This document shows positions 1-18,758 of a DNA stretch of 64,000 bases, one piece after another. The notes beneath the pieces were generated by a model that searched no databases, was not told the DNA's origin, and saw only the letters and a program-made list of their open reading frames with translations. Positions within the stretch are counted from its first letter, which is position 1. Each line of letters opens with the position of its first letter. This DNA comes from Syntrophaceae bacterium (lineage in GTDB: Bacteria > Desulfobacterota > Syntrophia > Syntrophales > Smithellaceae), in NCBI GenBank assembly GCA_009773315.1, contig WRPE01000022.1, positions 3,266 to 67,265 of the forward strand. The letters run 5' to 3'. Position numbers and translations under genes: made by a program.

Positions 1-857
1 TCTCCGAAAATATAGAACAGACTGAGCCTGCCGCCTAAGAAAAGCACCAGGTCGGAACTCATCAGAGCCAGCATGGCGCCGCCGGGTCTTATAGCCAGAG
101 AGGATTCGAAACAAAGAGGGTGAAGATCGGATAAGACACCCCGTCCCGCTCCCGCTGTAAAGGCCGGTATCCCTATCTTCTCTACGAACTCAACAAACTC
201 TCTTCCCGCATCGGCATACCAGATACCGCTTCCACCGATGACGACTGGATTTTTAGCCGTCTTCAGGAGATCAACAACCTTCCGGGTATTTTCCCGGTCA
301 ACGGGTTTGGTTGTGAGCGTGGTATGCATCTTTTTGACCTTGGCCATGTCCACCGTGGCGTTCAGGACATCACAGGGAAGTTCCAGATAGACCGGTCCGG
401 GTCGGCCGCTCATGGCTGTGCGGAAGGCGATGTCGATGAATTCAGGAATCCGCTCCGGGATATGGCAGACCAGTGCTTTTTTAACCATGGGTTCGATGAC
501 CGGAAGCTGGGTCATATCCTGAAGATCAAGCTTCTCGGCTGTCTCGAGCCCCACGCAGCCGGCAATGAGAATGACCGGCGCATTGGACAGCCTGGCGCTG
601 GCGATGCCGGAGAGGGCATTGGTGAATCCCGGTCCGGCAGTAACCATCGCCACTGCCGGTTTGCGGTTCATCCTGGCCCAGGCTTCAGCCATAAAAACCG
701 CCGCCTGTTCATGGCGTGTGTCAAAGATAGTAATCTTAGAATTTTCCAGAAATTGGTAAATGGGTGTAATATGCCCGCCGCTCAACGTAAAAATGTAATC
801 GACGCCCCGCTCGATTAAGGCATCCGCAACAAGCTTGCCGCCAATAATTTTATCCAT
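1..857 (-). CDS. Thiamine-diphosphate-dependent enzyme (acetolactate synthase / oxalyl-CoA decarboxylase-like), N-terminal part; 3' end runs off the window
   Basis: Not in the ORF track because it is open to the window edge. Reverse translation from ATG at 857-855 gives MDKIIGGKLVADALIERGVDYIFTLSGGHITPIY...RHEQAAVFMAEAWARM...VTAGPGFTNALSGIASA, the N-terminal PYR-domain pattern of ThDP enzymes. GGAGG RBS at 865-869. Confidence 0.8.
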   Translation of the reverse strand, partial: MDKIIGGKLVADALIERGVDYIFTLSGGHITPIYQFLENSKITIFDTRHEQAAVFMAEAWARMNRKPAVAMVTAGPGFTNALSGIASARLSNAPVILIAGCVGLETAEKLDLQDMTQLPVIEPMVKKALVCHIPERIPEFIDIAFRTAMSGRPGPVYLELPCDVLNATVDMAKVKKMHTTLTTKPVDRENTRKVVDLLKTAKNPVVIGGSGIWYADAGREFVEFVEKIGIPAFTAGAGRGVLSDLHPLCFESSLAIRPGGAMLALMSSDLVLFLGGRLSLFYIFG

Positions 858-901
858 AGTATATCCTCCTAATGATCGATAAGTTACTTTATCGACCGAT
901 T

Positions 902-929
902 CTAAATCAAAGATAGCGCTTTGATTTAG
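902..929 (-). promoter_or_regulatory. Perfect 11-bp inverted repeat (CTAAATCAAAG-N6-CTTTGATTTAG) between the SDR stop and the ThDP-enzyme start
   Basis: Read directly from the sequence. It is not followed by a T-run, so it could be an intercistronic hairpin or a protein-binding palindrome. Confidence 0.4.
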
Positions 930-937
930 GATTGGTC

Positions 938-1777
938 TCATAGTTCCATGCACTGTCCGCCATCTATATTGATGGCCTGTCCGGTAATATACCGCGAGGC
1001 GTCGGAAGCCAGAAAGGCCACCAGATCAGCGGCGTCCCCCGGAAGACCGATGTATCCCAGGGGAATGGTTTTGCACATTTCCTTTTCCCGCTCCTCAACC
1101 GTCGTGCCGAAAAATGACGCTTCCAGACCAAAACGCCACTTTTCCAGATCCGTGGCAACCTGTCCCGGGCAGATGGCGTTAACGCGGATTCCGCCGCCGC
1201 CCAGTTCTTTGGCCATGGTTTTGGTCAACATGATGACGCCCGCCTTGGCCACCGCGTAGGCGCTGTTGAAGATGGGAGGCACCTTGCCCGCCCGGGATGC
1301 CGTATTGATAATGGCTGCCGGCTTGCCCGCCATCAGGGGAATGATGGCCCGCGAGATGCGGAAGACGGAAAACAGATTCACGTCGATGGTCTTCATCCAG
1401 GCCGCTTCGTCATAACTCAGGATTGTATTCGGGACGCCGAAGGATGCTCCCGCGTTGTTGCAAAGAATATCGACGTGGTCAAAGACGCCTTTGATGTTAT
1501 CCACCATGGCTCCGATGGCGCTTGCATCCGTAACATCAACGGCCACCGATAATGTTCGAATGCCGTAAGTCTTCGCCAATTCTTTGGCAATCATATCCAT
1601 CTCTTCACCTGTTGCGGACTTCAGGGACTCTCCCGGCACGGGCGGTTTGCCCAGATCGGCAATGATAATGTTGCATTCTGCCGCAGCCAGTTTTTCCGCA
1701 ATGGCGTAACCGATGCCTGTTTTTTTGCCGGACCCCGTTACGATGGCTGTTTTTCCTTTTAAATCTTTATAAATCAT
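938..1777 (-). CDS. Short-chain dehydrogenase/reductase (SDR) family oxidoreductase
   Basis: The true start is [27 protein letters not shown] (TGxxxGIG Rossmann motif), with NNAG and YAVAKAG (YxxxK) motifs. ATG at 1777-1775 is preceded by GGAGG. The 405-aa track ORF is an N-terminal over-extension into the upstream gene. Confidence 0.85.
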
Positions 1778-3527
1778 CGACGCCTCCTTTGTACCAGTTA
1801 TGATGATCCAGATGAGCATACTTGGATAGGAATCGAGTCGGCAGTGCCAGGGCATCCTTCCTGAAGGGCGGGGCCAGTTGCTTGCCGTCCACCAGAAATT
1901 CCAGCACGGTGGGCTTGCGGTTTTTGATGCAGGACAGAAAGGCTTCCTTGATGTCCTCGGGCCGACTGACCTGGATACCGTTGGCTCCCATCGCCTTGGC
2001 CACCGGCACAAAGCTCGCAGGTGTGGGAATGTCCACGCCGACAAAGCGGTTGTTATAGAAGTCCACCTGGTTTTTGGCTTCGGCCCCCCACCACATGTTC
2101 CGGAAAACACAGGCCACAACGGGAAGATTGTGTTCCACGGCGGTGCTGACCTCATGGAGACTCATTCCCCAGGCACCGTCGCCGACAATGGCGATGACCG
2201 GCGCTTGGGGACAGGCGATCTGCGCCCCGAGGGCTGCCGGATAGGCAAACCCGGTGTTGCCAAAGGTCAGGGCGGCGATATGCCGTCTCGACTGGTTGAA
2301 CTTGAGGTAGCTGTTGGCTGTCGAGGCAACATTGCCAATATCCGTGGACACGATGGCATTGTCCGGCAGAGCTTTGGAGATTTCGAGCAAGACTCTTCTT
2401 GGGTTCATGGGATTGCCGTCAACCATGGCTAAATCGACAATCTCCTTTTCCCAGATCTTCTTTTCCCTGGCCACGGCTGCCAGGCGTTTGGCATCGGGCT
2501 TGCGGCCTTTGTCCAGGGCCTTCAGGCGTTTCAGGATTTCCACAGTGGCTTCCTTGGCATCGCCGATGATCCCGACCTCGATGGGGTGGGTCCGGGCAAT
2601 ATGCTTGGGATTGATGTCGATCTGGATAATCTTGGCATTTTCCGGGAAGTAGTTGATATCATACTGGGGAAGCGTCCCGAAGACGGAGAGCCTTGTCCCG
2701 ATAGCGAGCATGACGTCAGCCTTGGCCAAAGTTTTCATGGCCGCCTTGGAACCCATATAGCCGATGGGGCCGATGGATAAAGGATGATTTCCATAGAAGG
2801 CATCATTATGGAGATAGGTGACCGCCACGGGTGCCGTCAGGTGTTCGGCGATGGCCTTGACGATGTCCAGCGCGTCGGCATCAACGACCCCCCGTCCGGA
2901 GACGATGACGGGATTTTTGGCTTTGGACAGAAGGTCGGCAGCCCTGTTTAATTGTTCCATCGACCCGCATCCCCTGGCATCCACCCGGTATTGAGAGGGC
3001 TTCAGAATGGTTTCTTCGATCTCTCCGTAGAAATAATCACGGGGAATATCATAAAGAACAGCGCCCCGGTCGGCATAGGCGATGCGGAAGGCCGTTCTCA
3101 GGCAATCAGCCGCTCTTTTGGGATGGGGAACGCGGACGACAGCTTTCGTGACGGCCTTAAAGACGGACATCTGGTCGCATTCCTGGAAACCGTCCCAGCC
3201 GATGGTGGGCGTCCCCGCCGACGGGGAAATAATGACCAGAGGCGTATGGCCCATGTTTGCCGCGGCAACCGACGTGACCATATTGGTTATGCCGGGACCG
3301 TTCTGGCCTGTGACGACACCACACCGCCCCGAAACCCGGCAGTAGGCGTCTTCCATATGAGCGGCGCTCTGTTCATGACGGACGGGGATGAATTTGATCC
3401 CCGCATCCGGAAAAAGATCGAGCATGTCCATAAAGGCGGAACCCACAATGCCGCATACATGATCCACCCCTTCCGCCAGCAATGTCTCGACAATCGCTTC
3501 GCTGGGTGTCATTGTTACTTTTTTCAT
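1767..3527 (-). CDS. xsc: Sulfoacetaldehyde acetyltransferase-like ThDP enzyme (Xsc-like)
   Basis: 586 aa. The N-terminus [77 protein letters not shown] and [11 protein letters not shown] match my recollection of Xsc proteins. It sits directly upstream of acetate kinase, which consumes acetyl phosphate. The subfamily assignment needs a database check. Confidence 0.65.
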
Positions 3528-3552
3528 TTTAAAACCTCCAGTCTGTTTGACG

Positions 3553-4764
3553 TTATTGTTTTTGCAAAACCGTCCGCGTCTCCCGGGCGATCATTTTTTC
3601 TTCATCCGTTGGAACGACGAGAATTTTCACCTTCGTCCCGGGCAGGGAGATATCCTCTTCAAGAATGCCGTTCAGATTCTTCTCTTCATCCAGAGAAATG
3701 CCCAGCCAGGAAAGAAATGCGCAGATCCGCCGCCGCATGTTTGGTGAGTTTTCGCCGACCCCCGCGGTAAAGACAAGAACATCAAGACCGCCTGCGGCCG
3801 GAATCAGGGAACCAATCCCCTTGGCCACACTATAAGCATAGGCATCAAGCGCCAGACGTGCCCGCTCATTGCCGAGCGAGGATTCCTTTTCCAAATCGCG
3901 AAAATCGGGCGATATGCCGGAGATGCCGAAAACGCCGCTCTCGCGATTCAGCATGTCCATTACCTGTGTCAGGGAACTCTGCTCCTTCTCCACAAGGAAG
4001 GAAACAAGCGCCGGATCGATATCACCCGAGCGTGTTCCCATAACGAGACCGGACAGAGGTGTAAAACCCATGGAGGTATCCAGAGATTTTCCTTCCGCCA
4101 CAGCGCAGAGACTCGAGCCTGCTCCGAGATGGCAGGTGATGATCCTCAACGCCTCCACATTCTTCCCCAGGATTTCCGCCGTCCGGCAGGCTACATAACG
4201 ATGTGAAATGCCGTGGAAGCCGTAACGGCGGACATGATCATCTATGTAGTAATGATAAGGGATCGCGTAGGTGTAAGCATAGGGCGGCATGGTCTGGTGG
4301 AAGGCTGTATCGAAGACAGCCACCTGGGGTACGCCGGGCATGAGGCTTGTGCAGACATCAATCCCCATGAGGTTCGGCGGGTTATGGAGCGGTGCGAGTT
4401 TCTTGGTTGCCTCGAGGGTTTCCCGTATTGCGGGATCAACGATAACGGAGGTGCGGAAATGTTCTCCGCCGTGAACCACCCGGTGTCCGACGCCGCCAAT
4501 TTCGCTCATCTCCGTCAGAATTCCCTGCTGACCGTCGACAAGATGGGCCAACAGAGCATGCACGGCTTCATGATGATTGGCGAGCGGTGTTTTGTTCAGA
4601 AAGGTTTCGTGTCCTTGCGCATCATGTTGAAAGACGGCGTCGGTCATGCCGATACGGTCCGCCTGACCTTGAGCCAGGACGTTGTTGTCCCCCAGCTCAA
4701 AGAGTTTGTATTTAAGCGATGAACTGCCGCAATTTAAGACCAGAATCTTCAACGAACACTCCAT
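3553..4764 (-). CDS. ackA: Acetate kinase
   Basis: [19 protein letters not shown]-terminal motif; HRVVHGG; GFHGISHRY; TCHLGAGSS. The real start may be TTG at 4752 (GGAG lies 6 nt upstream). Confidence 0.93.
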
Positions 4765-4852: not shown

Positions 4853-6550
4853 TTATGCCAAATCTTCTTTCCACGGCCAGAGGAACAGGCCGCCTTCGAG
4901 AGTGCAGACGTCGGGAAATCCGGCCGCATCGAGGATTCTTTGGGCCGAAAAACCCCTCAGCCCGAGCTGGCAAGTACAAATGATTTTCTTATCCCTCGGT
5001 AATTCGTCAATTTTCCGATGCAGTTCGTCGAGGGGAATATTGATGACCTTGGGATGCTCGACGTGTGCGCGCCGAAATTCCAAATCCGATCTGACGTCCA
5101 CCATCAACACAGCGTCTTCATGATCCAGAAGTCTCTTGGCCTCCACGACGGTAATCGGTCTCATGATGCCAGAGTTCACATTTTCTGCAACATTGAGAGC
5201 GGTGACAAAAACATCCAGAGCCGGTGAAAAGGGAGGGGCATAGGCCATATCTAAATAAATGATATCCTGAAGGGTGGCGCCAAGACGCATGGCCGCAGCG
5301 GCCACATCAATGCGGCGGGCAACATCGCCTTTTCCCACGGCCTGCAGACCCAAAAGTCTTTGGGTGCCATTTTCAAATATGATTTTCAATGCCATGATTT
5401 GACTGTCGGGGTAATAATGGGCCTTATCGAATCCACAGACGGAAAGGGCGAAGGCATCCAATCCCATCTGCTTTGCCTGTGTCTCCGTGATACCGGTGGA
5501 ACCTACATTGTATTGAAACGCTTTGCATACGAAAGTGCCCTGTATGCCGGGAAACGTCGAATTCATACCGCAGATATTGTCGGCAATGACCCGGCCGTGT
5601 TTGTTTGCAGTGGAACCGAGGGGAATGTAACACGGTTTTCCCGTAATAATATGATTGTTTTCGACCATATCTCCACCGGCATAAATGGCGGGATCACTGG
5701 TCTGCATATGGGCATTGACCTTGAGCGCCCGGGTTTCCCCCAACGCAAGGCCGGCTGCCTCCGCAATCGCCGTATTGGGTTTGAGGCCTGTTGCGACAAT
5801 GACTATATCGGCGCGATATTCGTTATTTTTGGTGATGACCTTGTTAATCTTCCCTTCCTCTCCTTCGAAGGAAAGGATTTCGGCATTGAATTCCGAATCC
5901 ACCCTATTCTCATAAAAATGTTCCTGGATCATCGCTGAAATTTCGAAGTCGAGCATTCCCGGAAAGAGCTGGCTTTCGCGCTCCAGCAGCGTCACGTTCC
6001 ATTTCTTGAGGATCAGTGCCTCGGCGGCCTCGACGCCGATAAATCCCCCACCGACGATCACGGCGGAACCATGCGCGTGATCCCGAATTTCCTGGGCGAT
6101 GGCCGCGGCATCCTGCATGCGGGTTAAGTGATACACGCCCTTAAGATTCGATCCCGGAATCGGGGGCATCTTCGGCGATGCACCCGCCGCCAGGACCAGC
6201 GTGTCATATTCGAAGGAGAGAGATTCGCCGGTGCTCATGTTTGTTGCACCGACCCTGCGGGTGTTCCTGTCGATATCGAGGACCCTTACGTTCGTATGAA
6301 TCGTAATATCCTTCAGATCTTTAAAATATAGCACATCGCGGATTCTGCCGTATGTGGTTTTCATCAGGTCGTCCAGATCGCGGACTTTCCCGGAAAGATA
6401 GTACGGGATACCGCAGGCGGCATAGGAAATGTACTGCCCCTGGTCCAGGATGGTAACGGCATAGTCGGGACGGAGCCGTTTTATGCGCGATGCGGCTTTT
6501 GCACCGCAAGCGGATGCCCCGATGATAAGGATCCTCTTCTTATCGTTCAT
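4853..6550 (-). CDS. CoA-disulfide / NADH-dependent persulfide reductase with C-terminal rhodanese domain (CoADR-RHD, Npsr-like)
   Basis: IIGASACGAKAA FAD motif. SYAACGIPYY is the CoADR-type active-site Cys. A second dinucleotide fold is present (VIVGGGFIGVEAAE). The C-terminal rhodanese loop is ICTCQLGLRGFSA. Its ATG overlaps the dsrP stop (ATGA at 6547-6550). Confidence 0.8.
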   Translation of the reverse strand: MNDKKRILIIGASACGAKAASRIKRLRPDYAVTILDQGQYISYAACGIPYYLSGKVRDLDDLMKTTYGRIRDVLYFKDLKDITIHTNVRVLDIDRNTRRVGATNMSTGESLSFEYDTLVLAAGASPKMPPIPGSNLKGVYHLTRMQDAAAIAQEIRDHAHGSAVIVGGGFIGVEAAEALILKKWNVTLLERESQLFPGMLDFEISAMIQEHFYENRVDSEFNAEILSFEGEEGKINKVITKNNEYRADIVIVATGLKPNTAIAEAAGLALGETRALKVNAHMQTSDPAIYAGGDMVENNHIITGKPCYIPLGSTANKHGRVIADNICGMNSTFPGIQGTFVCKAFQYNVGSTGITETQAKQMGLDAFALSVCGFDKAHYYPDSQIMALKIIFENGTQRLLGLQAVGKGDVARRIDVAAAAMRLGATLQDIIYLDMAYAPPFSPALDVFVTALNVAENVNSGIMRPITVVEAKRLLDHEDAVLMVDVRSDLEFRRAHVEHPKVINIPLDELHRKIDELPRDKKIICTCQLGLRGFSAQRILDAAGFPDVCTLEGGLFLWPWKEDLA

Positions 6551-7722
6551 GGGTTTTCCTTTTCATCGTGCACGGCAATAAATATCCTATAAAGAATGGT
6601 CAAAATCATGAATCCAATCGCCCAAACACCGAGGGTGATAGCGATTTCCGCTCCCGTCGGAACGTATTCGGTGATGGCCTCCAATGGCGAGGGGATAAAG
6701 CCGGTCACGACCAGACCGAGGCCCTTCTCAATCCAGAGCGAAACAAACACAAAAACGCAGGCTACGGCGAGCCATCCATCGTTGCGGCGGATTGGCGGGA
6801 TGATCAGCATTCCCAGGGCCGCAAAGGCAAGAGCTGCCGATGTCCACATCCAGACAACGAGCTTCGTGTGGCCTTCCAGACCATTGAAAAGATAAAGAAA
6901 GTGCTGGGCATGTTCCGGAATCTGGCTGTAAAAGGCGGTGAACAGTTCCACAAGAACAAAGAAGATGCTTGCTGCAAGCGCATAGGCCACGATCTTGGAC
7001 AGGGCCTGAATCGCCTTTTCGCCTGCGTCAAAACGCCCGTAACGTTTTAAGATCAGACAGAAGATAATCAACAGAGCGGGGCCGGAAGCAAAGGCGGAAG
7101 CCAGGAAGCGGGGGGCCATAATCGCCGTCAGCCAGAAACTTCTGCCCGGAAGACCGGCATAGATGAAAGCCGTTACGGTGTGAATGCTGATGGCCCAGGG
7201 AATCGAGAGATAAATCAACGGTTTGACCCAGCCAGGCGGCGGGATTTCTTTACGATTGCAGCTCAGAATAACCCAACCGGTAAAGATATTAATCAGGAGA
7301 TAGCCGGAAAGGACGATCATGTCCCAGAAAAGGATCGAGGTTGGCGACGGATGCAAGAGGACGTTCATCACACGGGAGGGCTGGCCGAGATCGACGAAAA
7401 CGAAGAGGACACACATGATAACGGCGGCAACCGCCAGAAATTCACCCAGGACGGTGATTTTTCCGAAGGCCTTGTAGTCATGAAGATAGTACGGAAGAAC
7501 CAGCATGACCGCCGAAGCGGCAATGCCGACCAGGAAGGTGAACTGGGCGATGTAAAGCCCCCAGGACACGTCCCGGCTCATCCCCGTGACGCCTAACCCA
7601 TAATCCAACTGGCGAAGGTAGAAGATAAATCCGATCGCGGTGACAATCAGTAAAAAGATGATCCAGATCCAGTATCCGCGGCTGCCTTTCAGAGATTTTT
7701 CCAGCATAGTATCCTCATACAA
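6547..7722 (-). CDS. dsrP: DsrP, NrfD/PsrC-like integral membrane subunit of the DsrMKJOP complex
   Basis: 391-aa polytopic membrane protein immediately downstream of dsrO in the canonical M-K-J-O-P order. Confidence 0.85.
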   Translation of the reverse strand: MYEDTMLEKSLKGSRGYWIWIIFLLIVTAIGFIFYLRQLDYGLGVTGMSRDVSWGLYIAQFTFLVGIAASAVMLVLPYYLHDYKAFGKITVLGEFLAVAAVIMCVLFVFVDLGQPSRVMNVLLHPSPTSILFWDMIVLSGYLLINIFTGWVILSCNRKEIPPPGWVKPLIYLSIPWAISIHTVTAFIYAGLPGRSFWLTAIMAPRFLASAFASGPALLIIFCLILKRYGRFDAGEKAIQALSKIVAYALAASIFFVLVELFTAFYSQIPEHAQHFLYLFNGLEGHTKLVVWMWTSAALAFAALGMLIIPPIRRNDGWLAVACVFVFVSLWIEKGLGLVVTGFIPSPLEAITEYVPTGAEIAITLGVWAIGFMILTILYRIFIAVHDEKENP

Positions 7723-8503
7723 TATAGTAAATCTGCGGCTTGGTTCCTAAGCTTGCGCGCCTCAGCAGGTTAAAGCGCTTTTCCAGGAGAAGACGGATTT
7801 CCGATTGGGGATTTTCCATATCTCCGAAAACCAGGGCTTTTTCCTTACAGGCCAGAACGCAGGCAGGCCCAAGGCCTTTGGCCAGCCTTTCCTCACAGAA
7901 GTTGCATTTTTCCACAACGCCTTTGGTTCGCGTTGGGTAATCCGGATTTATTCTGGTGATAAAAGGCCGGGGATCCCGGTAGTTCATACTTCTTGCGCCG
8001 TAGGGGCAGGCGGCCATGCAAAGCCTGCAACCGATGCAGCGGTGATAGTCTATCATCACGATGCCGTCTTGTCTCTGGAACGTGGCCTTCGTCGGGCAAA
8101 CCCTTACACAGGGCGGGTTGGCGCACTGGTTGCACAAAACGATTGGTCGCCTGGCTCTCGCGATTTTTGGCAGATAGGAATGATTCACTTCGGGAAAAAT
8201 ATGGGGGAAATCCTCCCGCCAGATCCATTTGACCTCGTCTTTGAGGTTGCCGAAATCGGGGACGTTGTGTGTGGCGTGACACGCTGCGATGCAATCCACA
8301 CAGTCAGCGGGGCATTTTGAAGCATCGATCGCCATCGCCCAGCGTTTGGCCGTGAGAGCCTTTGATGGCGACAAGGCCTCCGGGAAATTGCTTACGGGGA
8401 TAATCTTCTCTTTGGCCCAGGCCGGGCAGACGATTGCAGGCGCGATCAGGGAGAGTGTGGAAACCCCCGCTATTTTCAGAAATTCTCTGCGATTCGTCGT
8501 CAT
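7715..8503 (-). CDS. dsrO: DsrO, periplasmic 4Fe-4S ferredoxin-like subunit (Tat signal)
   Basis: Twin-arginine signal NRREFLKIAG. Multiple CxxCxxCxxxCP clusters (CNQCANPPCVRVCP, CIGCRLCMAACP). Confidence 0.88.
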   Translation of the reverse strand: MTTNRREFLKIAGVSTLSLIAPAIVCPAWAKEKIIPVSNFPEALSPSKALTAKRWAMAIDASKCPADCVDCIAACHATHNVPDFGNLKDEVKWIWREDFPHIFPEVNHSYLPKIARARRPIVLCNQCANPPCVRVCPTKATFQRQDGIVMIDYHRCIGCRLCMAACPYGARSMNYRDPRPFITRINPDYPTRTKGVVEKCNFCEERLAKGLGPACVLACKEKALVFGDMENPQSEIRLLLEKRFNLLRRASLGTKPQIYYIV

Positions 8504-8910
8504 TTTTTTACCTCCCCGGGAATGTTATGGCAACTGAAGCAGGAAGGCTTGGCGGCCAGATAGTTGTGGCACCGGTCGCAGAACTGTTCCTTGTTGCTGT
8601 GGCATTTCAGGCAGGCGCCGGAAAGGCTTTTCTCAAAAGTGCGGCCGTCTTTCGCCGTATAAAGGCGTTTCCCCTCGCGGACGGATTCGTCGCGCCAGGC
8701 GTCAAGAAGTTTCATGTGATTGGCACGCATGAAGTTTACGTCTTCCACGCAGCGCTTATCTTGCAATTGCGCAATGGCGGGCGTATCGAGGCTCAGCTGG
8801 GGCGGTGGGGATGGTTTCCCTTTGCCGTACCAGAAGGGGAACGTGACCACGATGATAAAGATCACTATTCCGGCGACGATTTTTCCTCCATTATAAATTT
8901 TCATTGCCAC
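8500..8910 (-). CDS. dsrJ: DsrJ, membrane-anchored triheme cytochrome c
   Basis: N-terminal TM helix. Three CxxCH motifs (CLKCH, CDRCH, CFSCH), plus an upstream conserved Cys (DKRCVED) as in DsrJ. Confidence 0.88.
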   Translation of the reverse strand: MAMKIYNGGKIVAGIVIFIIVVTFPFWYGKGKPSPPPQLSLDTPAIAQLQDKRCVEDVNFMRANHMKLLDAWRDESVREGKRLYTAKDGRTFEKSLSGACLKCHSNKEQFCDRCHNYLAAKPSCFSCHNIPGEVKK

Positions 8911-8913
8911 TTC

Positions 8914-10533
8914 CTAAATGCTCTTGTCAACATCGATATTCATGTCATTCCCGCGCAGGTCAGTCGTTCTTTCTTTTTCCCCCGTCATCACCAGGGCGTT
9001 GGCCAGAAGTTCGTGGACGCCCATAACCGTCACCCCCGGCACCCAGTAGTCCATGAGCGACGTCAGCGTCGCCCGGTCGATGGCGCAGATGCAGCCCAGG
9101 CGATTCACCCCGTGCTTTTCCACAACCTTTTTCACGGCCATGGCCCTCGGCATCCCACCGCGCATCCGCATCTCCATGTTTTCATCATTGCCGAGACCCG
9201 CGCCGGCGCCGCAGCATAAAGTCTTTTCCCGAATGGTATCTTCAGCCATTTCAAAGAAATGATCGCAGGTCTTTTGAATGATATACCTCGGTTCTTCGAA
9301 AAGCCCCATGGCCCGTGCGGGATTGCATGAATCGTGATAGGTAAACCTGATATGGTCGTTTCTTTGGGGATCGAGTTTCAGCTTTCCATTCCGGATGAGG
9401 TCGGCGGTAAATTCCGTTATGTGGACCATCTTCGTGGCGCGGGCATTTTCGAAGCGGGTTCCCGTAATGGGAGAGACCGGTTCCTGAAGAAAATCGGCGG
9501 GGCCGTTCATGGTGTCCATGTATTGGTGAATCACCCGCCACATGTGGCCGCATTCACCGCCCAGAATCCATTTGACGCCGAGCCGTTTCGCTTCGGCATA
9601 GATTTTGGCATTAAGGCGCTTGACCATTTCAGCGGATGTGAACAAGCCAAAATTCCCCCCTTCGGAGGCGTAAGTGCTGAAGGTATAATTCAGGCCGATC
9701 TCGTGGAAGAGCATCAGGTAACCCATGCAGGTAAATGTCCCCGGATCGGCAAAGTAATCGCCTGACGGTGTGACAAAGAGAATATCGGCGTCCACCTTAT
9801 TGATGGGCACGTTCACCCGAATACCCGTCCGGTCTTCGATGTCGTCGGCCATGAATTCGAGCATGTCCTTGATGCCGCCGGGCTGAATGCCCAGGTGATT
9901 GCCCGTCCGGAAGCAATTGGCTGCAGGTTCGATAACCCAGTTGATGTTGCACCCCACAAGATTGAGAAGCTCCCGGCCCATCATGGTGATTTCCGCCTGG
10001 TCTATGCCGAAGGGGCAGAAAGCGGAACACCGGCGGCACTCGGTACACTGGTAGAAGTAGTAGAACCATTCTTTCAGGACATCAACCGTCAGGTCCCGGG
10101 CCCCGGCAATTTTGCCGAAAACCTTACCCGACGTCGTAAAGTAGCGGCGATAAACTGAACGCAAAAGTTCGGCCCGCAGCACCGGCATGTTTTTCGGATC
10201 GCCGGAGCCGATATAGAAATGGCATTTATCGGCACAGGCACCGCACCGGACACAGACGTCCAAGAAGAGGCGGAAGGAGCGATATTTTTCCAGGCGCTCC
10301 TTCATACCGTTTAAGATAATGGCCTGCCAGTCGGCCGGTAGTTTCCAGTCTGTGTCCGCGGGCTGCCAGGCCCGCGGGTTCGGAAGGTCCAGATAGGTCA
10401 GATTTTTCGCAGCCCCGCTGTAGCTCCAGGTTCCCGGACGAAAATCGACAGGTGTGTCCATCCAGGCCGTCTCGGGCGGCGCGTAGCTGATTTTGATCAA
10501 TTGGTCCGGTTTGGGTATCTTGGCAAACGACAC
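8914..10533 (-). CDS. dsrK: DsrK, HdrD-like cytoplasmic Fe-S subunit with CCG domains
   Basis: CVRCGACADKC and CTECRRCSAFCP ferredoxin motifs. CCG-domain signatures (GECGH, CCGAGAGLG). Position between dsrM and dsrJ. Confidence 0.9.
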   Translation of the reverse strand: MSFAKIPKPDQLIKISYAPPETAWMDTPVDFRPGTWSYSGAAKNLTYLDLPNPRAWQPADTDWKLPADWQAIILNGMKERLEKYRSFRLFLDVCVRCGACADKCHFYIGSGDPKNMPVLRAELLRSVYRRYFTTSGKVFGKIAGARDLTVDVLKEWFYYFYQCTECRRCSAFCPFGIDQAEITMMGRELLNLVGCNINWVIEPAANCFRTGNHLGIQPGGIKDMLEFMADDIEDRTGIRVNVPINKVDADILFVTPSGDYFADPGTFTCMGYLMLFHEIGLNYTFSTYASEGGNFGLFTSAEMVKRLNAKIYAEAKRLGVKWILGGECGHMWRVIHQYMDTMNGPADFLQEPVSPITGTRFENARATKMVHITEFTADLIRNGKLKLDPQRNDHIRFTYHDSCNPARAMGLFEEPRYIIQKTCDHFFEMAEDTIREKTLCCGAGAGLGNDENMEMRMRGGMPRAMAVKKVVEKHGVNRLGCICAIDRATLTSLMDYWVPGVTVMGVHELLANALVMTGEKERTTDLRGNDMNIDVDKSI

Positions 10534-10535
10534 GG

Positions 10536-11540
10536 CTACTCCTTTTCCACGGGTAATCCCGATGCCTTCATTTTGCCCCGGAACTCATCTTCGTATTCTT
10601 CATAAGTATGAACTTTGACGGGGGCATTCCAGGGATTGATATGCCGTTGCATCCGGCTGTCGTTGGCCAGGTTGCGCGTCGGGCTCAGAAAAATCCCTCC
10701 GGCGTGCATCAGCTTGCTTGCGGGAAACCAGGCCAGAAGGACAAAAATGAAACAAAGGTGGATGTGAAAAACGGCGCTGATCTCCTGAGGAACAACAGGC
10801 GAAAAGGTTACCCAGCCCATTGCCAGGGCTTTTACCGCGTTGAGGTCGGCGGGGAAAAAGTGCCTCATCAGGAGGCCGGTAGTCACGACACCGGCGATCA
10901 GCAGCAGTGAAAAATAATCGGTGAACAAGGAGATATAACGCATCTGCGGGACAACCACCCGGCGCAGGAATAGAAATGTCAGCCCAACGAGGATGGCGGC
11001 ATCGCTCAGATAAAGAGTCGGGATGCCGATCTCGAAGAATCCGTCCAGAGCGGAGAGAGCGCCGATCCAGGGGGCGATCGGTTCGACGAAAAAGCGCAGG
11101 TGTCGAAGCACGATAATCGCGAACGACCAGTGGAACAGAAGACCGCAAAACCACAGCCATTTGGCACTGCCGTAAACGGGCCGTCCGTCAACAATCGCCA
11201 CGTCCGTATTCCGGAAGAGCGACCGAAACAGGAATACTTCCTGGGCCATTCTTGCGATCACACCCCAATACCCTGCAGGGCTTTCTACCGGATTGGATTT
11301 GATCCAGGGCAGCGATTTCCCCTGGCCGCAAGTCGTAGAAATGCGGAAGGGGACCGGTGATTTGGCCCACAAAAGAATACGAAAGACGAAGCCGATCAGA
11401 AAAAAGGCTATGGCGACATACGGCAGGATGTTCGTTATGAGGCCAGTTAATCCGACTGCGGACAAGGCCGTGGGCAGCGCCGCCAGGATTAAAACGGCAA
11501 TCAGCGATATGCCGATGTTCTTCATTGCGTTCAATGCCAT
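10536..11540 (-). CDS. dsrM: DsrM, NarI-like dihaem b membrane subunit
   Basis: Polytopic membrane protein. The start is trimmed to MALNAMKNIG (ATG 11540-11538), which overlaps the stop of the upstream gene. The alternative start is ATG 11525. The 381-aa track ORF over-extends. Confidence 0.82.
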   Translation of the reverse strand: MALNAMKNIGISLIAVLILAALPTALSAVGLTGLITNILPYVAIAFFLIGFVFRILLWAKSPVPFRISTTCGQGKSLPWIKSNPVESPAGYWGVIARMAQEVFLFRSLFRNTDVAIVDGRPVYGSAKWLWFCGLLFHWSFAIIVLRHLRFFVEPIAPWIGALSALDGFFEIGIPTLYLSDAAILVGLTFLFLRRVVVPQMRYISLFTDYFSLLLIAGVVTTGLLMRHFFPADLNAVKALAMGWVTFSPVVPQEISAVFHIHLCFIFVLLAWFPASKLMHAGGIFLSPTRNLANDSRMQRHINPWNAPVKVHTYEEYEDEFRGKMKASGLPVEKE

Positions 11541-13135
11541 TCCCACTGAATAAAGGGTTTTTCTATATCCACCATGGCGTTGACGATCAACTCCACCAAT
11601 CCACCATAGAGAATCCCTGATTTTTTCCAGACGCCATAATATTCGAACATGTCGCGGAACTGACCTTTGCAGTTCGAACAAGGTGCGCAGACATACTTCT
11701 TGATTTCCGCACCGGGAATATCCTGGAAGGCATCAAGAATCTGTTTGAGCTTCATCCGCCCGGAAACGGCGGAACGCCAATCGGGGAAATTAGTCGATTG
11801 CGTGATGGCGAAACCGCTTCCACCACCGCAGCAATAATTTTCCACACCCTGGGGAGTCATTTCCCGGAATTGCGGGCAGATCTTCTCCAGAATCCGCCGT
11901 TGCGGCTTAACGATGCCCATCAGTCTGACCATGTTGCATGGATCATGGAGCGTGACGGGGAAATTATTTCGGCTGGGGTCGAGCTTGATCTTTCCGCTTA
12001 AAACGATATCTTCCAAAAGCGGAAGGATACTTTCCCTGGGGATGTTGAGGTCACCCGTGAGAACACGGTCGGCAATAACGATACCCGCCTTATGAGCATG
12101 GCCGCATTCCCCCAGTGAGATCTTGCGGACGCCCAGATTTTTTGCTACCTGGGACTGGCGAATAGCCACCCGGGCGAACTGGAAGTCGTCATACCAAACG
12201 CCGTAATTCACGGAGTCGTAACCGGTAATCTCGGAGGAGATTGTCCAGTCCACACCGGCGGCATCCAGGGTGATGGCAAAAGCCTCCAGGTTTTCCGGCC
12301 AGGCCAGAAATTCACCGGCGTTGTGGATGAGAAGCATATCCGCCCCTTTCTTGTCCACAGGAATCTTGATCTTCCGGCCCGTCTTCTCCTCGATTTCCTC
12401 TTCGGCAAACTCCAAAACATTCCTCAGGGCCGCAGGCGTCATCCCCGTCGAGGAACCGACTTTGAGCTGCTGGACGGAACCCTTCTCGTGGATCTCCTTG
12501 GGGGCGATTCCCATCTGCTGGCTGAATATTTTCCGTATCTCCCTGCTGATGAGCGCGTTATCGCAGCCCAAGAGACAGACTTGAGCGCAACGCCTGCAGA
12601 GAGTGCACCTGTAAGCAAGCTCCGCAAGCCTTGCCAGTGTCTGCCAGTTAAGATCGATATCGCTGTCCTTAAACTTTCTTAACAGGGAATTTTCCTTTTT
12701 GATGTAAGTGCTGATGATTCTGCGGAGAATCTCCGGTCGCATCGTCGGGCGATAGATCTCCTGATGGCCGCTGGCCTCGTATGTCGGGCAGGCGTCCGAG
12801 CAAACTTGACACTTTACGCAGTAATCCAGCGTATGGACAAGCGGCAGGAGAAACGTCCAGTTATTTTCTACCGTGAAGAGTTTTTCCAGACCGGCAAGGA
12901 ATTTTTCAATGAAAGCCTTCTCCTCCTCCGGGGTTGCAGGCGGGGTAAGGCCGATAGCGACGATGCCGTCGAGCGACGCATCCATACGCTTGCGTTGTTC
13001 ATCCGTAAGCTGTCTAATCGGTGCTTTTTCCATCTTATCGTATGGCGGCGGCAGGGGCATAAGCTCCGCGGGATCTATCTCCGTTAATTGTCCGCCGGGG
13101 CGGCTGAAATCTTTAACATGAATCAGCTTATTCAT
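11531..13135 (-). CDS. DsrK/HdrD-like Fe-S oxidoreductase paralog (two CCG domains)
   Basis: CVKCQVCSDACP and CTLCRRCAQVC cluster motifs; GECGH and CCGGGSG CCG signatures. The overall layout parallels DsrK (8914-10533). Confidence 0.8.
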   Translation of the reverse strand: MNKLIHVKDFSRPGGQLTEIDPAELMPLPPPYDKMEKAPIRQLTDEQRKRMDASLDGIVAIGLTPPATPEEEKAFIEKFLAGLEKLFTVENNWTFLLPLVHTLDYCVKCQVCSDACPTYEASGHQEIYRPTMRPEILRRIISTYIKKENSLLRKFKDSDIDLNWQTLARLAELAYRCTLCRRCAQVCLLGCDNALISREIRKIFSQQMGIAPKEIHEKGSVQQLKVGSSTGMTPAALRNVLEFAEEEIEEKTGRKIKIPVDKKGADMLLIHNAGEFLAWPENLEAFAITLDAAGVDWTISSEITGYDSVNYGVWYDDFQFARVAIRQSQVAKNLGVRKISLGECGHAHKAGIVIADRVLTGDLNIPRESILPLLEDIVLSGKIKLDPSRNNFPVTLHDPCNMVRLMGIVKPQRRILEKICPQFREMTPQGVENYCCGGGSGFAITQSTNFPDWRSAVSGRMKLKQILDAFQDIPGAEIKKYVCAPCSNCKGQFRDMFEYYGVWKKSGILYGGLVELIVNAMVDIEKPFIQWEWH

Positions 13136-13138
13136 TTA

Positions 13139-14080
13139 CTATCCCTTATTATCTTTTTTCGCATCGGGGAATCCCGGTTCTATGGCCACCTCAACCCAGG
13201 TCTTTCCAGTTGCGATATGCGGGCCTTCCCAGGAGACATTCTGTGCCAGGAGAGTATTGATCTTTCCCTCCATCTTACTGCCGGGCTGATTCGGCTCGTC
13301 ATCCCAGCGGATGAAGAAATAAGCAAGTATCCGCGTGATGTAGTGCGTCGAACGGGTAAACGGCAGATAGATGAGGAAGATATCGAACAGGATGATATGC
13401 AGTAATGTCATTGGGTGAAGCACAGGCGGGGACAGAGTGATCAACCCCAACCAGTACGCGCGGTATTCATCCAGGGTTGGATCGAGGACTAGCCAGGCAA
13501 AAAGGCCGCTGCCATAGACAACCAGGAAGAAAAGATAATTGAAAAAATTCATCGGCATGGAGTATTTCCTCAAAGAACGGTCGGCCAAACGGATAATTCC
13601 CATGCCGATACTCCCGAATGTTCCCGTCACGAAAGCGATCCCTCCTGTTACAAGCAGGAGATAGTAAAACGCCACCCCCGCGAGTTGACCTGAGGCAGCT
13701 CCGATATCCAACCCTCCGAGCATGGCCGTGGCTGCAAAGAAGCAGAGGATATGGAATGTAATAATGAGAATGAATCCCAGGTGCCACGGTAGAAGAAACA
13801 GCCAGTAGAGGGGGTTGCTTTTATAGTACTGGCCCATGTATAAATTGTCTTTTAACGAATATAAAAGGCTTCGCCAGCGATTCTTGGGACGGGGCTTCGT
13901 CCACCATTCCTGTTGTTCGTAATAGGAACCGCCATAGTGGTAATGCTTTTCATGGATCACAGGATAAAGATCCCACCGGATGTGCGGCGGCATCGCGAGC
14001 CACTTTGTAACCTTGAAAGCATACACCGCCACGATGAACGCATAGGCTACATAGGTCAGATAGATAATCAGGGTTCCCAT
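13139..14080 (-). CDS. NarI/DsrM-like membrane protein paralog
   Basis: 313-aa polytopic membrane protein with His-containing helices. It is tightly coupled (3-nt gap) to the DsrK-like gene downstream. Confidence 0.7.
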   Translation of the reverse strand: MGTLIIYLTYVAYAFIVAVYAFKVTKWLAMPPHIRWDLYPVIHEKHYHYGGSYYEQQEWWTKPRPKNRWRSLLYSLKDNLYMGQYYKSNPLYWLFLLPWHLGFILIITFHILCFFAATAMLGGLDIGAASGQLAGVAFYYLLLVTGGIAFVTGTFGSIGMGIIRLADRSLRKYSMPMNFFNYLFFLVVYGSGLFAWLVLDPTLDEYRAYWLGLITLSPPVLHPMTLLHIILFDIFLIYLPFTRSTHYITRILAYFFIRWDDEPNQPGSKMEGKINTLLAQNVSWEGPHIATGKTWVEVAIEPGFPDAKKDNKG

Positions 14081-14109
14081 GGTTTCCCCTTTACTTCAAG
14101 AGAATGGAA

Positions 14110-14430
14110 TCAGACGCAACCCGTCGGTTTCGAAAGCCCCGCCAGCTTGCAGGCGCCCTTGGCCGGTCCGGTCGGAAAGAGCTCATAGAGCTTCTTCATG
14201 TCGATTCCCAGGTCTTTACAGATTTTTCGGATCATCGGCGCGATGCCGAACTGCTGATAATAATTCCGCAGATAGTTGATCACTTTCCAATGCTCTTCAG
14301 TCAGCTTTCCCTCGATGTCTTCTGCGTAGGCATAAGCTTCTGCAAATTCCTCATTCCATTTATCGAGTTCTTGAAGAAATCCATCTTCATCTACTTCATA
14401 CTTTTTTCCTGCTAGTTCAATTTGCGGCAT
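14110..14430 (-). CDS. dsrC: DsrC, sulfite reductase-associated sulfur carrier
   Basis: 106 aa ending CKLAGLSKPTGCV, with both conserved C-terminal-arm cysteines. AGGAGG RBS upstream. Confidence 0.95.
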   Translation of the reverse strand: MPQIELAGKKYEVDEDGFLQELDKWNEEFAEAYAYAEDIEGKLTEEHWKVINYLRNYYQQFGIAPMIRKICKDLGIDMKKLYELFPTGPAKGACKLAGLSKPTGCV

Positions 14431-14616
14431 TTGTGAAACCTCCTGCTGTATTTTAAATTACTCAATTCTTATGTGTTCTTAAGCCCTGTGCTTATGGCGC
14501 CCTTTATGGTTCCCACCCTTTTTTATAAAGGGGGGTCAGGGGGGATTTGGTCCTGTTGTTCTTTTTTAAAATTCCCCTGCATCCCCCTTTGAGAGCTTTG
14601 CACAACCTCTCTAATC

Positions 14617-14686
14617 GTCATTCCCGCGAAAGCGGGAATCTAGGAAGCAATTGAAAACACTGGATTCCCGCTTTCGCGGGAATGAC
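14617..14686. repeat. REP-like palindromic element: two exact 24-nt inverted arms, each itself a hairpin
   Basis: GTCATTCCCGCGAAAGCGGGAATC (14617-14640) and its exact reverse complement (14663-14686), separated by 22 nt that contain CAATTG. Each arm is ATTCCCGC-GAAA-GCGGGAAT. Confidence 0.85.
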
Positions 14687-14699
14687 AAATTTGTTGGTT

Positions 14700-16151
14700 T
14701 CATGTAGTTATGCAAAGGTCTCCTTTTATAAAAGGGGGACGACAAATCGCCTTGTTTTGTTCGGCACTACGATATTGCCTGGCTGCGCCGATGATAGCCT
14801 CGGCCCACTGGGGTGCTCCCAGTGCGTGCAGGTGGGTGAAGCCTGCCAGAATATTTTTTCTGCACAGACCGTCGCGCTGACCATCTATTCCTGTTCCCCT
14901 CAGGACGTGGCAGGCGGTGTGGCCGTCGTCTTCTTTTCGAGACAGGATCCTGCAATAATGAAACTCGTGGCCCCTCATTCTGGTGCCGATAGGGAAAAAA
15001 GGGTTTTCCTGATCCACGGTCAAGGTTGTGTATCCGTGGCCCTGCGGCCGCTTTTCCATACCGAAGGCAACAGGCAGTGCGCCGACCATCGGATAATGTT
15101 TGTCGCCGATGGTCAGAGTTTCACCCAGGTAAATGAAGCCTCCGCATTCAGCGTAAATCGGAAGGCCTGCTTCGGCCGCCGCTTTCAGGGAACCGCGGAA
15201 AGCATCGTTTTGGGCGAGGCGACCGGCGTGGGTTTCGGGAAAACCACCGCCGATGTATAAGGCATCTACGTCCGGAAGGCTTTTTTCATCAAGGGCGCTG
15301 ATCTCCACAATTTTTGCGCCCCAATCGCTCAGGGCCTCCAAATTTTCGGAATAATAAAACTGAAAGGCGGCGTCTTTGATCACGCCGATTGTGACAGGCT
15401 CTTCACCTCTTTGATCGGGGTTGGCTGGGTTGGGAAATGCATCAACGCTCCAGGGCGCCGCACTTTCGGCAACCGCAAGAAGTCCCGGAATGTCCAGGTA
15501 GTCCTGGGCGATAACGCCCGCCCTGTCCAGGGCACGCTCAGTGCGGTCGTGCTCCTGGGGGGGGATTAATCCCAGGTGCCGATCCGTAAAGGGAAGATCC
15601 GTCATTCGTGGCACAGTGCCATAGACGGGAAGTCCGGTATATTCCTCAATAGCTTGACGGATAACGGCCGCATGACGGCTACCATTCACCCGGCTCAGGA
15701 TGACGCCCCGGATATCGACGTCGGGATCAAGGCTTCGGCATCCCATAACCATCGCTGCTGCTGTTCGTGTGACTTTATCGCAATCGACGACCAGAATGAC
15801 CGGTGCATTGAGGAGTTTGGCCAGTTCGGCTGTACTGAATTCCCCTGCGGCATTCACGCCGTCAAAGAGTCCCCGGTTGCCTTCAATGAGGGAAACGGCG
15901 CCCTCTACGGCATGACGTGAAAAAGAGCGGACGACCTCACCGGAACCCATCAGATAGGTATCCAGGTTGTAACAGGGACGAGATGCCGCCAGGGAAAGCC
16001 AGGCCGCGTCGATATAATCCGGTCCCTTTTTAAAGGGCACGACGGGGATGCCTTGCTTTTGCCAGACAACGGCCATGGCGACGGAAAGTGTGGTTTTTCC
16101 CGCACCACCCCGCAGGGCGGCCACAATCAAACGAGGGCAGGATCGGTTCAT
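14700..16151 (-). CDS. dsrN: DsrN, cobyrinic acid a,c-diamide synthase-like amidase (siroheme amidation)
   Basis: The N-terminus RLIVAALRGGAGKTTLSVAM and the C-terminal glutamine-amidotransferase part (YAECGGFIYL) are typical of CbiA/CobB. The position after dsrABD supports DsrN. The last ~20 codons run into the repeat region. Confidence 0.85.
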   Translation of the reverse strand: MNRSCPRLIVAALRGGAGKTTLSVAMAVVWQKQGIPVVPFKKGPDYIDAAWLSLAASRPCYNLDTYLMGSGEVVRSFSRHAVEGAVSLIEGNRGLFDGVNAAGEFSTAELAKLLNAPVILVVDCDKVTRTAAAMVMGCRSLDPDVDIRGVILSRVNGSRHAAVIRQAIEEYTGLPVYGTVPRMTDLPFTDRHLGLIPPQEHDRTERALDRAGVIAQDYLDIPGLLAVAESAAPWSVDAFPNPANPDQRGEEPVTIGVIKDAAFQFYYSENLEALSDWGAKIVEISALDEKSLPDVDALYIGGGFPETHAGRLAQNDAFRGSLKAAAEAGLPIYAECGGFIYLGETLTIGDKHYPMVGALPVAFGMEKRPQGHGYTTLTVDQENPFFPIGTRMRGHEFHYCRILSRKEDDGHTACHVLRGTGIDGQRDGLCRKNILAGFTHLHALGAPQWAEAIIGAARQYRSAEQNKAICRPPFIKGDLCITT

Positions 16152-18662: not shown

Positions 18663-18758
18663 GATTTTACCTCCTCTCAATACCGCTCATTTTTTCAGTC
18701 CCAAAGCCCGAATACAATCCCGGCTAAGACCTGCCTTACCGGACTTTACTATTTGACT

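Follow-up and report, generated by a model that had tools for sequence, protein, structure and literature searches.

How does a member of the Smithellaceae, a family regarded as fermentative, obligate syntrophs, come to carry genes for dissimilatory sulfite reduction (dsr) in a genome where neither Sat nor AprA is found? The question is raised by a 64,000-nucleotide stretch (positions 3266-67265 of contig C64, hereafter the window) of the 2.98-Mb assembly of an uncultured Smithellaceae bacterium, in which the dsr genes are followed by genes for a sulfoacetaldehyde acetyltransferase (xsc), an acetate kinase (ackA), a short-chain dehydrogenase/reductase (SDR) and a second thiamine diphosphate (ThDP)-dependent enzyme, here called ThDP2. 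Our analysis indicates that these genes probably form a unit for organosulfonate respiration that is attached to the dsr operon, a reading based on what Xsc, AckA and the Dsr proteins were identified as, on gene order, on the absence of other known routes, and on the inheritance of ThDP2 together with Xsc and Dsr. Marker genes place the genome at 100% completeness with 2.3% contamination; protein identities were judged against the cut-offs of NCBIfam equivalog models, and genes to the left of the window were read from 3.3 kb of further contig sequence.

Xsc and acetate kinase adjoin the dsr genes

The 586-aa ThDP enzyme of the window scores 851.4 bits with the equivalog model TIGR03457 (cut-off 676.4) and 849.8 bits with PRK07525 (cut-off 620). 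The best family other than Xsc is acetolactate synthase (ALS; TIGR00118), which at 400.6 bits stays below its cut-off of 538, and an ALS identity is ruled out on this score. This is in agreement with the first-pass annotation of the locus, which had called the protein Xsc-like, and the scores identify it as Xsc (EC 2.3.3.15) and not as ALS or oxalyl-CoA decarboxylase (Oxc). Among cultured organisms, the nearest Xsc is that of Desulforamulus (Desulfotomaculum) ruminis, with 79% identity, and homologues from Smithella and Smithellaceae already carry the name Xsc at NCBI. Two Xsc residues described for UniProt Q84H41, E510 and Q125 (PMC13327070), have putative counterparts, matched by motif only, in WWGAE (Glu483) and GFQECDQ (Gln115).

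AckA likewise exceeds the cut-off of its equivalog model (Table 1), and a TTG at 4752 is a possible alternative start. The genes for Xsc, AckA, SDR, ThDP2, a CoA-disulfide-reductase-like flavoprotein with a rhodanese domain (CoADR-rhodanese) and all Dsr proteins are co-directional on the minus strand of the window; the junctions of the unit are short or overlapping, and its gaps contain no terminator-like site. The gap of 25 nt between ackA and xsc had been given correctly in the earlier annotation with the order reversed, as ackA precedes xsc in the direction of transcription. The CoADR-rhodanese gene stops at 4853 and ackA starts at 4764, a distance of 88 nt, close to the ~90 nt estimated earlier, again without a terminator-like site. 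At the other end of xsc, the SDR gene begins, with an ATG, just before the xsc stop, so that the two genes share 11 nt, which suggests translational coupling. Judged from gene order alone, the module would be co-transcribed with the dsr genes.

Apart from this genome, only its two closest relatives, L002 and L068, have the CoADR-rhodanese gene between dsrP and ackA; in other relatives dsrP is followed directly by ackA or xsc, and the gene is thus a non-conserved part of the unit.

A Dsr set without a sulfate-derived substrate

DsrA, DsrB, DsrM, DsrK, DsrJ, DsrO and DsrP all score above their equivalog cut-offs, which identifies the set as one for dissimilatory sulfite reduction. DsrC was recognized by its C-terminal two-cysteine arm, and copies with 79-88% identity occupy the same place in relatives. 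Together with dsrN and an open reading frame (ORF) of dsrD size, these genes share the strand of xsc and ackA, as had been proposed. Sat and AprA were not found in the genome, and the AprA model detects AprA in two sulfate-reducer-type genomes used as positive control; canonical sulfate reduction is not represented, and without Sat or Apr the organism should therefore be unable to respire sulfate. As there is no other known source of sulfite either, sulfonate-derived sulfite is the only recognizable substrate for Dsr.

Known anaerobic routes from sulfonates to H2S proceed through glycyl-radical enzymes, through SuyAB, or through Tpa-Xsc in gut Desulfovibrionaceae. The genome was found to contain no PFL-like glycyl-radical enzyme, and therefore no IslA or HpsG, no SuyB, no HpsN beyond the housekeeping HisD, and no match to TIGR03845 (ComD/ComE). 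A Tpa-type aminotransferase was not found in it either: its class-III enzymes are ArgD, HemL and a glutamate-1-semialdehyde (GSA)-aminomutase-like protein, none of them of the PRK07678 type that adjoins xsc in other genomes with a tpa-xsc arrangement. Because these other routes are absent, the module made up of SDR, ThDP2 and a Zn-dependent dehydrogenase (Zn-ADH) is the only candidate source of sulfoacetaldehyde.

ThDP2 belongs to the benzaldehyde lyase/2-hydroxyacyl-CoA lyase clade

ThDP2 remains below every NCBIfam cut-off, i.e., those of PRK05858 (417 vs 587 bits), 2-hydroxyacyl-CoA lyase (HACL; 337 vs 600), Xsc (236 vs 676) and Oxc (280 vs 557 and 266 vs 739). Its best relatives of solved structure are bacterial 2-hydroxyacyl-CoA lyases and synthases (HACS) at 262 bits and benzaldehyde lyase (BAL)/formolase at 256 bits. 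An AlphaFold (AF2) model with a pLDDT of 81 is closest to HACS, BAL and formolase (TM 0.84-0.87), and this fold search, while placing ThDP2 in the BAL/HACS/formolase clade, does not separate decarboxylase from lyase. The alignment with BAL is collinear from residue 3 to 557 at ~30-32% identity, whereas that with HACS ends at residue 545.

The BAL residues His29, Glu50, Gln113 and His483 are kept in ThDP2 and in 58-59 of 59 orthologues. The BAL pocket, on the other hand, is replaced, with Ser/Gln for Tyr397, Thr/Val for Leu398, Met-Ile for Ala480-Thr481 and Ser for Phe484. In HACL and Xsc, the glutamate that protonates the carbanion has been assigned to the position of BAL Thr481 (PMC13327070); this position (Glu493 in AcHACL) is occupied by an invariant Ile481 in the ThDP2 family. 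The alignments thus assign ThDP2 to the BAL/HACL clade as an enzyme of BAL type that is no BAL orthologue. With BAL (Pseudomonas fluorescens, PDB 2ag0/2uz1; Herbiconiux, 8y7s), formolase and HACL/HACS (8vza-8vzk, 6xn8, 7pt1) it shares the full-length collinear alignment and the catalytic residues, but it differs from BAL in lacking the aromatic pocket, from HACL in lacking the catalytic glutamate, and from all of these in its context of sulfonate genes. We considered and rejected a CoA-ester enzyme of the HACL or Oxc kind: ThDP2 has no catalytic glutamate, its C-terminus resembles that of BAL, and none of the loci encodes a CoA ligase or transferase. We conclude that ThDP2 is likely to act on a free α-hydroxy- or α-oxo-carbonyl compound and not on a CoA ester.

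The first-pass annotation had speculated that ThDP2 might be an analogue of sulfopyruvate decarboxylase. Such a function survives as one of two live hypotheses, without any kinship to ComDE, to which ThDP2 is unrelated; if it is a sulfopyruvate decarboxylase, it would be a non-homologous analogue. Public databases label the family, which has several thousand metagenomic members, simply 'acetolactate synthase' or 'TPP-binding protein'.

ThDP2 is co-inherited with Xsc and Dsr in the Smithellaceae

The same 71 Smithellaceae genomes were searched with Xsc, ThDP2, DsrA and AprA as queries; these genomes are related, and the counts below do not represent independent events. Xsc is present in 27 of the 71 and ThDP2 in 31, with both in 26, Xsc only in one, ThDP2 only in five and neither in 39. 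The sole genome with Xsc only is 70% complete and has its gene cut by a contig end, and the five with ThDP2 only have either a fragmented xsc directly beside the module (two) or a contig end at the module (three). DsrA was detected in 24 genomes, 23 of which carry ThDP2, and AprA in none of the 71. The trait is patchy over six genera; in genus g2 a single genome out of 19 is Xsc-positive, and the same genome is the only one positive for ThDP2 and for DsrA.

The fragmented xsc genes, each consisting of two pieces of ~210 aa, lie in otherwise intact dsr-module loci (L093 5945-7288 and L095 6398-7701) and are either pseudogenes or assembly errors. Locus L021, the only one with a clean dsrP-ackA-SDR junction, has its xsc on another contig. 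Dsr-positive genomes that seem to lack Xsc were considered as proof that ThDP2 desulfonates by itself, and this argument fails within the Smithellaceae, where two such cases are accounted for by broken xsc genes beside the module, two by contig ends and L021 by its xsc elsewhere. Outside the family the link between Xsc and the module is looser: among ten genomes with the module and no adjacent xsc, four have Xsc elsewhere, in two of these next to a tpa-like gene.

Xsc and SuyAB occur beside the module in different architectures

Orthologues of ThDP2 (57-97% identity) are found in 77 genomes, most of them metagenome-assembled genomes (MAGs) of completeness not established. Nearly all are from Syntrophales/Smithellaceae, with further members in Spirochaetota/Leptospirales, SAR324 and Desulfobacteraceae. 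In 59 related loci the gene immediately preceding ThDP2 encodes an orthologous SDR, and the pair is followed by a transporter, a second dehydrogenase (Zn-ADH or PRK06181-type SDR) and then a TetR regulator.

Xsc adjoins the SDR-ThDP2 pair in 20 loci and in at least four architectures, with Xsc lineages that are only 49-51% identical to each other. The order in the present genome is ackA-xsc-SDR-ThDP2. In L034 it is xsc-ackA-SDR-ThDP2, with an Xsc 51% identical to that of the present genome and scoring 774 bits on TIGR03457, in L059 and L097 SDR-ThDP2-MFS-SDR2-TetR-xsc, with an Xsc 49% identical to it, and in L025 SDR-ThDP2-MFS-TetR-ackA-xsc. In the ThDP2 tree the different xsc architectures fall in separate clades.

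A Desulfobacteraceae MAG carries a tight cluster (L064 3114-11710) of suyA, suyB, aldehyde:ferredoxin oxidoreductase (AOR), SDR, transporter, ADH and ThDP2 genes, the SuyB of which is 60-69% identical to SuyB of Cupriavidus pinatubonensis and Paracoccus, where SuyAB is characterised. As judged from this neighbourhood, it represents a second, independent link of the module to a C3-sulfonate desulfonating enzyme. Elsewhere the same genome has a tpa-like gene beside xsc, and it also encodes AprA.

Two further contexts were noted. In genus g3 (L096, genome G019, 6125-16072), two co-directional HGD-D (2-hydroxyacyl-CoA-dehydratase-like) genes precede ackA-xsc-SDR-ThDP2-BASS-SDR2, with thiC, thiD and thiamine pyrophosphokinase genes further upstream in divergent orientation. 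A clade of 69%-identical ThDP2 without Xsc in Syntrophales MAGs (L041-L045) has a BcrAD/HgdC-type activase ATPase, a 4-hydroxybutyryl-CoA-dehydratase-like protein and extra SDRs alongside, and the module may there serve a different, radical-type chemistry.

Partner genes and organization of the locus

Past xsc the order toward the contig end is xsc-SDR-ThDP2-BASS transporter-Zn-ADH, after which the contig stops. The SDR and second ThDP enzyme of the earlier annotation are thus both present, with corrected boundaries: the 405-aa ORF had been over-extended and gives an SDR of 279 aa, and the ThDP2 gene encodes 565 aa and starts at 857. Reading leftward gave no ilv genes, in line with the sulfonate reading, and none of the aminotransferase, TauE or TRAP genes whose presence there had been envisaged; an ALS small subunit was equally absent from the cluster and the leftward extension.

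No specific likeness of the SDR sequence to a known sulfonate dehydrogenase was seen. Its best 60 PDB matches are of the FabG, BacC and gluconate 5-dehydrogenase types and include no sulfoacetaldehyde reductase, and it gives sub-threshold matches to butanediol and acetoin reductase models. Similarity to HpsO of C. pinatubonensis (32%, 95 bits) is at SDR background, with five other SDR genes of the genome matching HpsO better; the earlier, speculative proposal of an IsfD-type SDR finds no support in the PDB matches. The Zn-ADH compares with HpsP in the same way (28%, 98 bits; another medium-chain dehydrogenase/reductase (MDR) of the genome is the better match), and the MFS similarity to HpsU is not significant. 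We rejected orthology of the three proteins to HpsO, HpsP and HpsU and retain a family-level analogy only.

Three unrelated families of anion transporters interchange in the module, namely BASS, anion-type MFS and GltS-like proteins. The swap occurs in place even among near-identical strains, with BASS here and in L027 (ThDP2 95% identical) and an anion-type MFS in L068 (97%). The SDR-ThDP2 spacer of 80 nt (window 860-937) contains the AT-rich palindromes TAAATCAAAG-N6-CTTTGATTTA and TCGATAA-N6-TTATCGA. They were considered as a conserved TetR operator and dismissed, since they are absent from the nearest relatives (spacer ~35 nt) and represent a strain-specific insertion. The last 330 bp of the contig (L001 1-330), past the ADH stop, contain a hairpin (TTCCGTC-GAAA-GACGGAA) and the tail of an opposite-strand gene; relatives have a TetR gene after ADH, and here it is not assembled. 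Between dsrC and dsrMKJOP lies a divergent pair of dsrK-like and dsrM-like genes, with 59-62% (DsrK-like) and 29-35% (DsrM-like) identity to those of relatives.

Table 1 Genes of the proposed unit. Positions refer to the window unless stated otherwise.
Feature	Position	Strand	Evidence and remarks
ThDP2, BAL/HACL-like ThDP enzyme, 5' part	1..857	minus	full gene 565 aa, contig C64 2425-4122; three TPP domains
Classical SDR, 279 aa, probably NAD-dependent	938..1777	minus	PF13561 180 bits; start codon and ribosome-binding site read
xsc, sulfoacetaldehyde acetyltransferase, 586 aa	1767..3527	minus	TIGR03457 851.4 bits; three ThDP-enzyme domains
ackA, acetate kinase, 403 aa	3553..4764	minus	PF00871 467 bits; TIGR00016 470.3 bits (cut-off 293.4)
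CoA-disulfide-reductase-like flavoprotein with C-terminal rhodanese domain (CoADR-rhodanese)	4853..6550	minus	start overlaps dsrP stop
dsrMKJOP	6547..11681	minus	five genes, each above NCBIfam equivalog cut-off
dsrP	6547-7722	minus	483 bits, over equivalog cut-off
dsrO	7715-8503	minus	290 bits, over equivalog cut-off
dsrJ	8500-8910	minus	168 bits, over equivalog cut-off
dsrK	8914-10533	minus	730 bits, over equivalog cut-off
dsrM	10536-11681	minus	458 bits, over equivalog cut-off
Second dsrK-like gene	11531-13135	minus	DsrK model 324 bits, below cut-off 400
dsrM-like membrane protein, 313 aa	13139-14080	minus	no family match; putative role from position and conservation in relatives
dsrC, 106 aa, ending in two-cysteine arm ...CKLAGLSKPTGCV	14110..14430	minus	putative name from sequence motif
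dsrN, cobyrinic acid a,c-diamide synthase-like amidase	14700..16151	minus	TIGR00379 436 bits; putative role from position among dsr genes
Probable dsrD, ~79 aa	16167..16406	minus	ORF assigned by size and place directly after dsrB
dsrB	16409-17470	minus	TIGR02066 533 bits vs 341
dsrA	17472-18680	minus	TIGR02064 572 bits vs 393
BASS-family transporter, 310 aa	left of window, L001 1458-2390		same unit as ThDP2
Zn-dependent polyol-type dehydrogenase (Zn-ADH), 340 aa	left of window		threonine/sorbitol/butanediol-dehydrogenase type

Proposed pathway and alternatives

In the proposed pathway, a small anionic sulfonate would be imported by the BASS transporter, or by an anion-type MFS protein in most relatives, and oxidized by the NAD-type SDR and/or the Zn-dehydrogenase. 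ThDP2, as a BAL/HACL-like enzyme, would then remove one carbon to give sulfoacetaldehyde, the presumed product of the module, from which Xsc would form acetyl phosphate and sulfite with consumption of phosphate. AckA would yield ATP and acetate, and DsrAB, DsrC and DsrMKJOP would reduce the sulfite to sulfide as electron sink. The link between sulfonate desulfonation, ATP formation and sulfite respiration drawn in the first-pass annotation is supported as far as Xsc, AckA and Dsr are concerned, while two of the substrates named there do not: taurine is unlikely as the genome has no Tpa-type aminotransferase, and sulfoacetate is unlikely as the cluster has no CoA ligase or acylating aldehyde dehydrogenase.

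The most likely substrate for the ThDP2 step derives from sulfolactate or 2,3-dihydroxypropanesulfonate (DHPS). Our first choice, held tentatively, is oxidation of sulfolactate to sulfopyruvate, which ThDP2 would decarboxylate. By analogy, this copies the established SlcC/ComC/SlcD-ComDE-Xsc pathway and fits a genome in which the ComDE step would otherwise be unfilled; it would also explain the two dehydrogenases as a stereo-complementary pair, is consistent with the SuyAB context, and calls for no C1 detoxification. The second choice, which we regard as possible though doubtful, is oxidation of DHPS to an α-hydroxy-carbonyl compound that ThDP2 would cleave in the manner of BAL. This fits, again by analogy, the DHPS 2-dehydrogenases HpsO (an SDR) and HpsP (a Zn-dehydrogenase), whose genes lie on either side of an MFS gene in the order seen here, and the retention of the BAL lyase residues would suit it. 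The remaining weight goes to isethionate, to a ThDP2 that desulfonates by itself, and to a substrate other than a sulfonate.

Several points weigh against these proposals. To our knowledge, neither SDR nor MDR is a family known for sulfolactate oxidation. As for DHPS, the likeness of SDR, ADH and MFS proteins to HpsO, HpsP and HpsU is at background, and a BAL-type cleavage would release a C1 aldehyde, for which no detoxification gene was seen in linkage. Furthermore, genomes of genus g3 have Xsc and the module, yet DsrA was detected in 0 of 15, so that the link to Dsr, as far as gene content tells, is not obligatory. Finally, in six of the ten genomes with the module and no adjacent xsc (three Spirochaetota and three others, of completeness not established), Xsc was not found at all; either the module is therefore able to function in the absence of Xsc, or it does not yield sulfoacetaldehyde in every case.

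Organosulfonate respiration fed by a C3-sulfonate has to be weighed against four other explanations. The simplest chemistry would be a C2 route, in which imported isethionate is converted to sulfoacetaldehyde by the SDR or the Zn-ADH, and one dehydrogenase plus Xsc would suffice; IsfD, a known sulfoacetaldehyde reductase, is itself an SDR. ThDP2 would then be accessory or unrelated, and both it and the second dehydrogenase would be left without a task, although SDR and ThDP2 form a nearly inseparable adjacent pair in 59 loci and ThDP2 accompanies Xsc in 26 of the 27 Xsc-positive Smithellaceae genomes. Together with the lack of a sulfoacetaldehyde reductase among the SDR's top 60 PDB matches, this leads us to consider the C2 route unlikely. 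Taurine respiration through Tpa, Ald and Xsc, as in Taurinivorans muris or D. ruminis, might be suggested by the 79% identity to the D. ruminis Xsc, the gene of which adjoins tpa and ald (PMC3569383). Neither an aminotransferase nor an alanine dehydrogenase is encoded in the cluster, however, and with the class-III aminotransferases of the genome accounted for as described above, we consider this route very improbable.

It is also conceivable that ThDP2 itself desulfonates, its ThDP-bound sulfoacetaldehyde enamine, formed by decarboxylation or C-C cleavage, eliminating sulfite as in Xsc to give an acetyl product, with Xsc only salvaging sulfoacetaldehyde that escapes. Both candidate ThDP2 reactions would, from ThDP chemistry, pass through the enamine of Xsc, and the six module genomes without detectable Xsc would find an explanation. 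Against this, no Smithellaceae genome has ThDP2 without an intact xsc, a broken copy of it beside the module, or a contig that breaks off there, a pattern that argues for Xsc being needed and to which L021, with xsc elsewhere, conforms; moreover, ThDP2 lacks the glutamate of Xsc and HACL at the BAL Thr481 position, and self-desulfonation appears improbable. Hardly more credible is the idea that the module serves the breakdown of an anionic diol or acyloin without a sulfonate group, with xsc as a mere neighbour. In many loci the module does occur by itself between unrelated genes, Spirochaetota have it without Xsc, ordinary hydroxyketones are substrates of BAL-type enzymes and of polyol-type dehydrogenases, and the SDR's sub-threshold matches to butanediol/acetoin reductase models point the same way. 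Chance neighbourhood is difficult to reconcile with the almost perfect match between the distributions of Xsc and ThDP2 over the 71 family genomes, the independent placement of Xsc lineages beside the module, its position beside SuyAB in another phylum-level lineage, and the overlap of xsc stop and SDR start with the coupling that it suggests.

Relation to known systems and implications

The coupling of Xsc, AckA and Dsr is already known and not new. It operates in taurine respiration by Taurinivorans muris LT0009, which uses Tpa-Ald-Xsc, AckA and DsrAB-DsrC (PMC10507020), and a 2012 prediction assigned this route to D. ruminis as well (PMC3569383). As in these organisms, Xsc here would free sulfite and acetyl phosphate, AckA would make ATP and Dsr would respire the sulfite; unlike them, the present organism has no Tpa/Ald and an SDR/ThDP2/ADH feeder instead, its genes are joined to dsrMKJOP, and the host is a member of the Smithellaceae without Sat/Apr. 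The aerobic branch from sulfolactate to Xsc consists of SlcC/ComC/SlcD, ComDE, Xsc and Pta (PMC11382572). With sulfolactate as substrate, the present organism would share with that branch an oxidation of the 2-hydroxy group, a ThDP-dependent decarboxylation to sulfoacetaldehyde and Xsc, but there is no ComDE homologue here, the candidate decarboxylase is a 565-aa BAL/HACL-clade protein, the dehydrogenases are of the SDR/MDR type, the organism is an anaerobe, and AckA replaces Pta. The DHPS genes hpsO-hpsU-hpsP of C. pinatubonensis encode an SDR, an MFS protein and a Zn-dehydrogenase (PMC11382572; locus L085). The protein families and their order, SDR, MFS transporter and Zn-dependent polyol-type dehydrogenase, are alike; the low identities given above, a ThDP enzyme in the place of HpsN and the lack of HpsN/SuyAB set the present module apart.

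New are the host, a Smithellaceae member of a Syntrophales dsrAB lineage listed as 'uncultured dsrAB lineage 6' (PMC10591310), the physical joining to the dsr operon, and the feeder module with its uncharacterised ThDP family. Our literature search found no paper on Xsc in Smithella, on the module, or on a BAL/HACL-like enzyme in sulfonate catabolism. We consider evenly balanced the wider proposal that ThDP2 founds a new family, either a BAL/HACL-type sulfopyruvate decarboxylase or a sulfo-α-hydroxycarbonyl lyase, which together with the SDR would form a new anaerobic route from C3-sulfonates (sulfolactate/DHPS) to sulfoacetaldehyde, and would explain DsrAB without Sat/Apr in Smithellaceae as that of organosulfonate respirers.

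Sulfonates, with DHPS, sulfolactate and isethionate as examples, rank with the most abundant organic sulfur compounds. A widespread lineage of freshwater, peat and digesters appears to use sulfite derived from such sulfonates as its own electron sink. If this is true, an orphan dsrAB lineage would gain a function, a new thiamine enzyme family would be indicated, and Smithella-type organisms in models of methanogenic systems would gain an alternative to interspecies hydrogen transfer.

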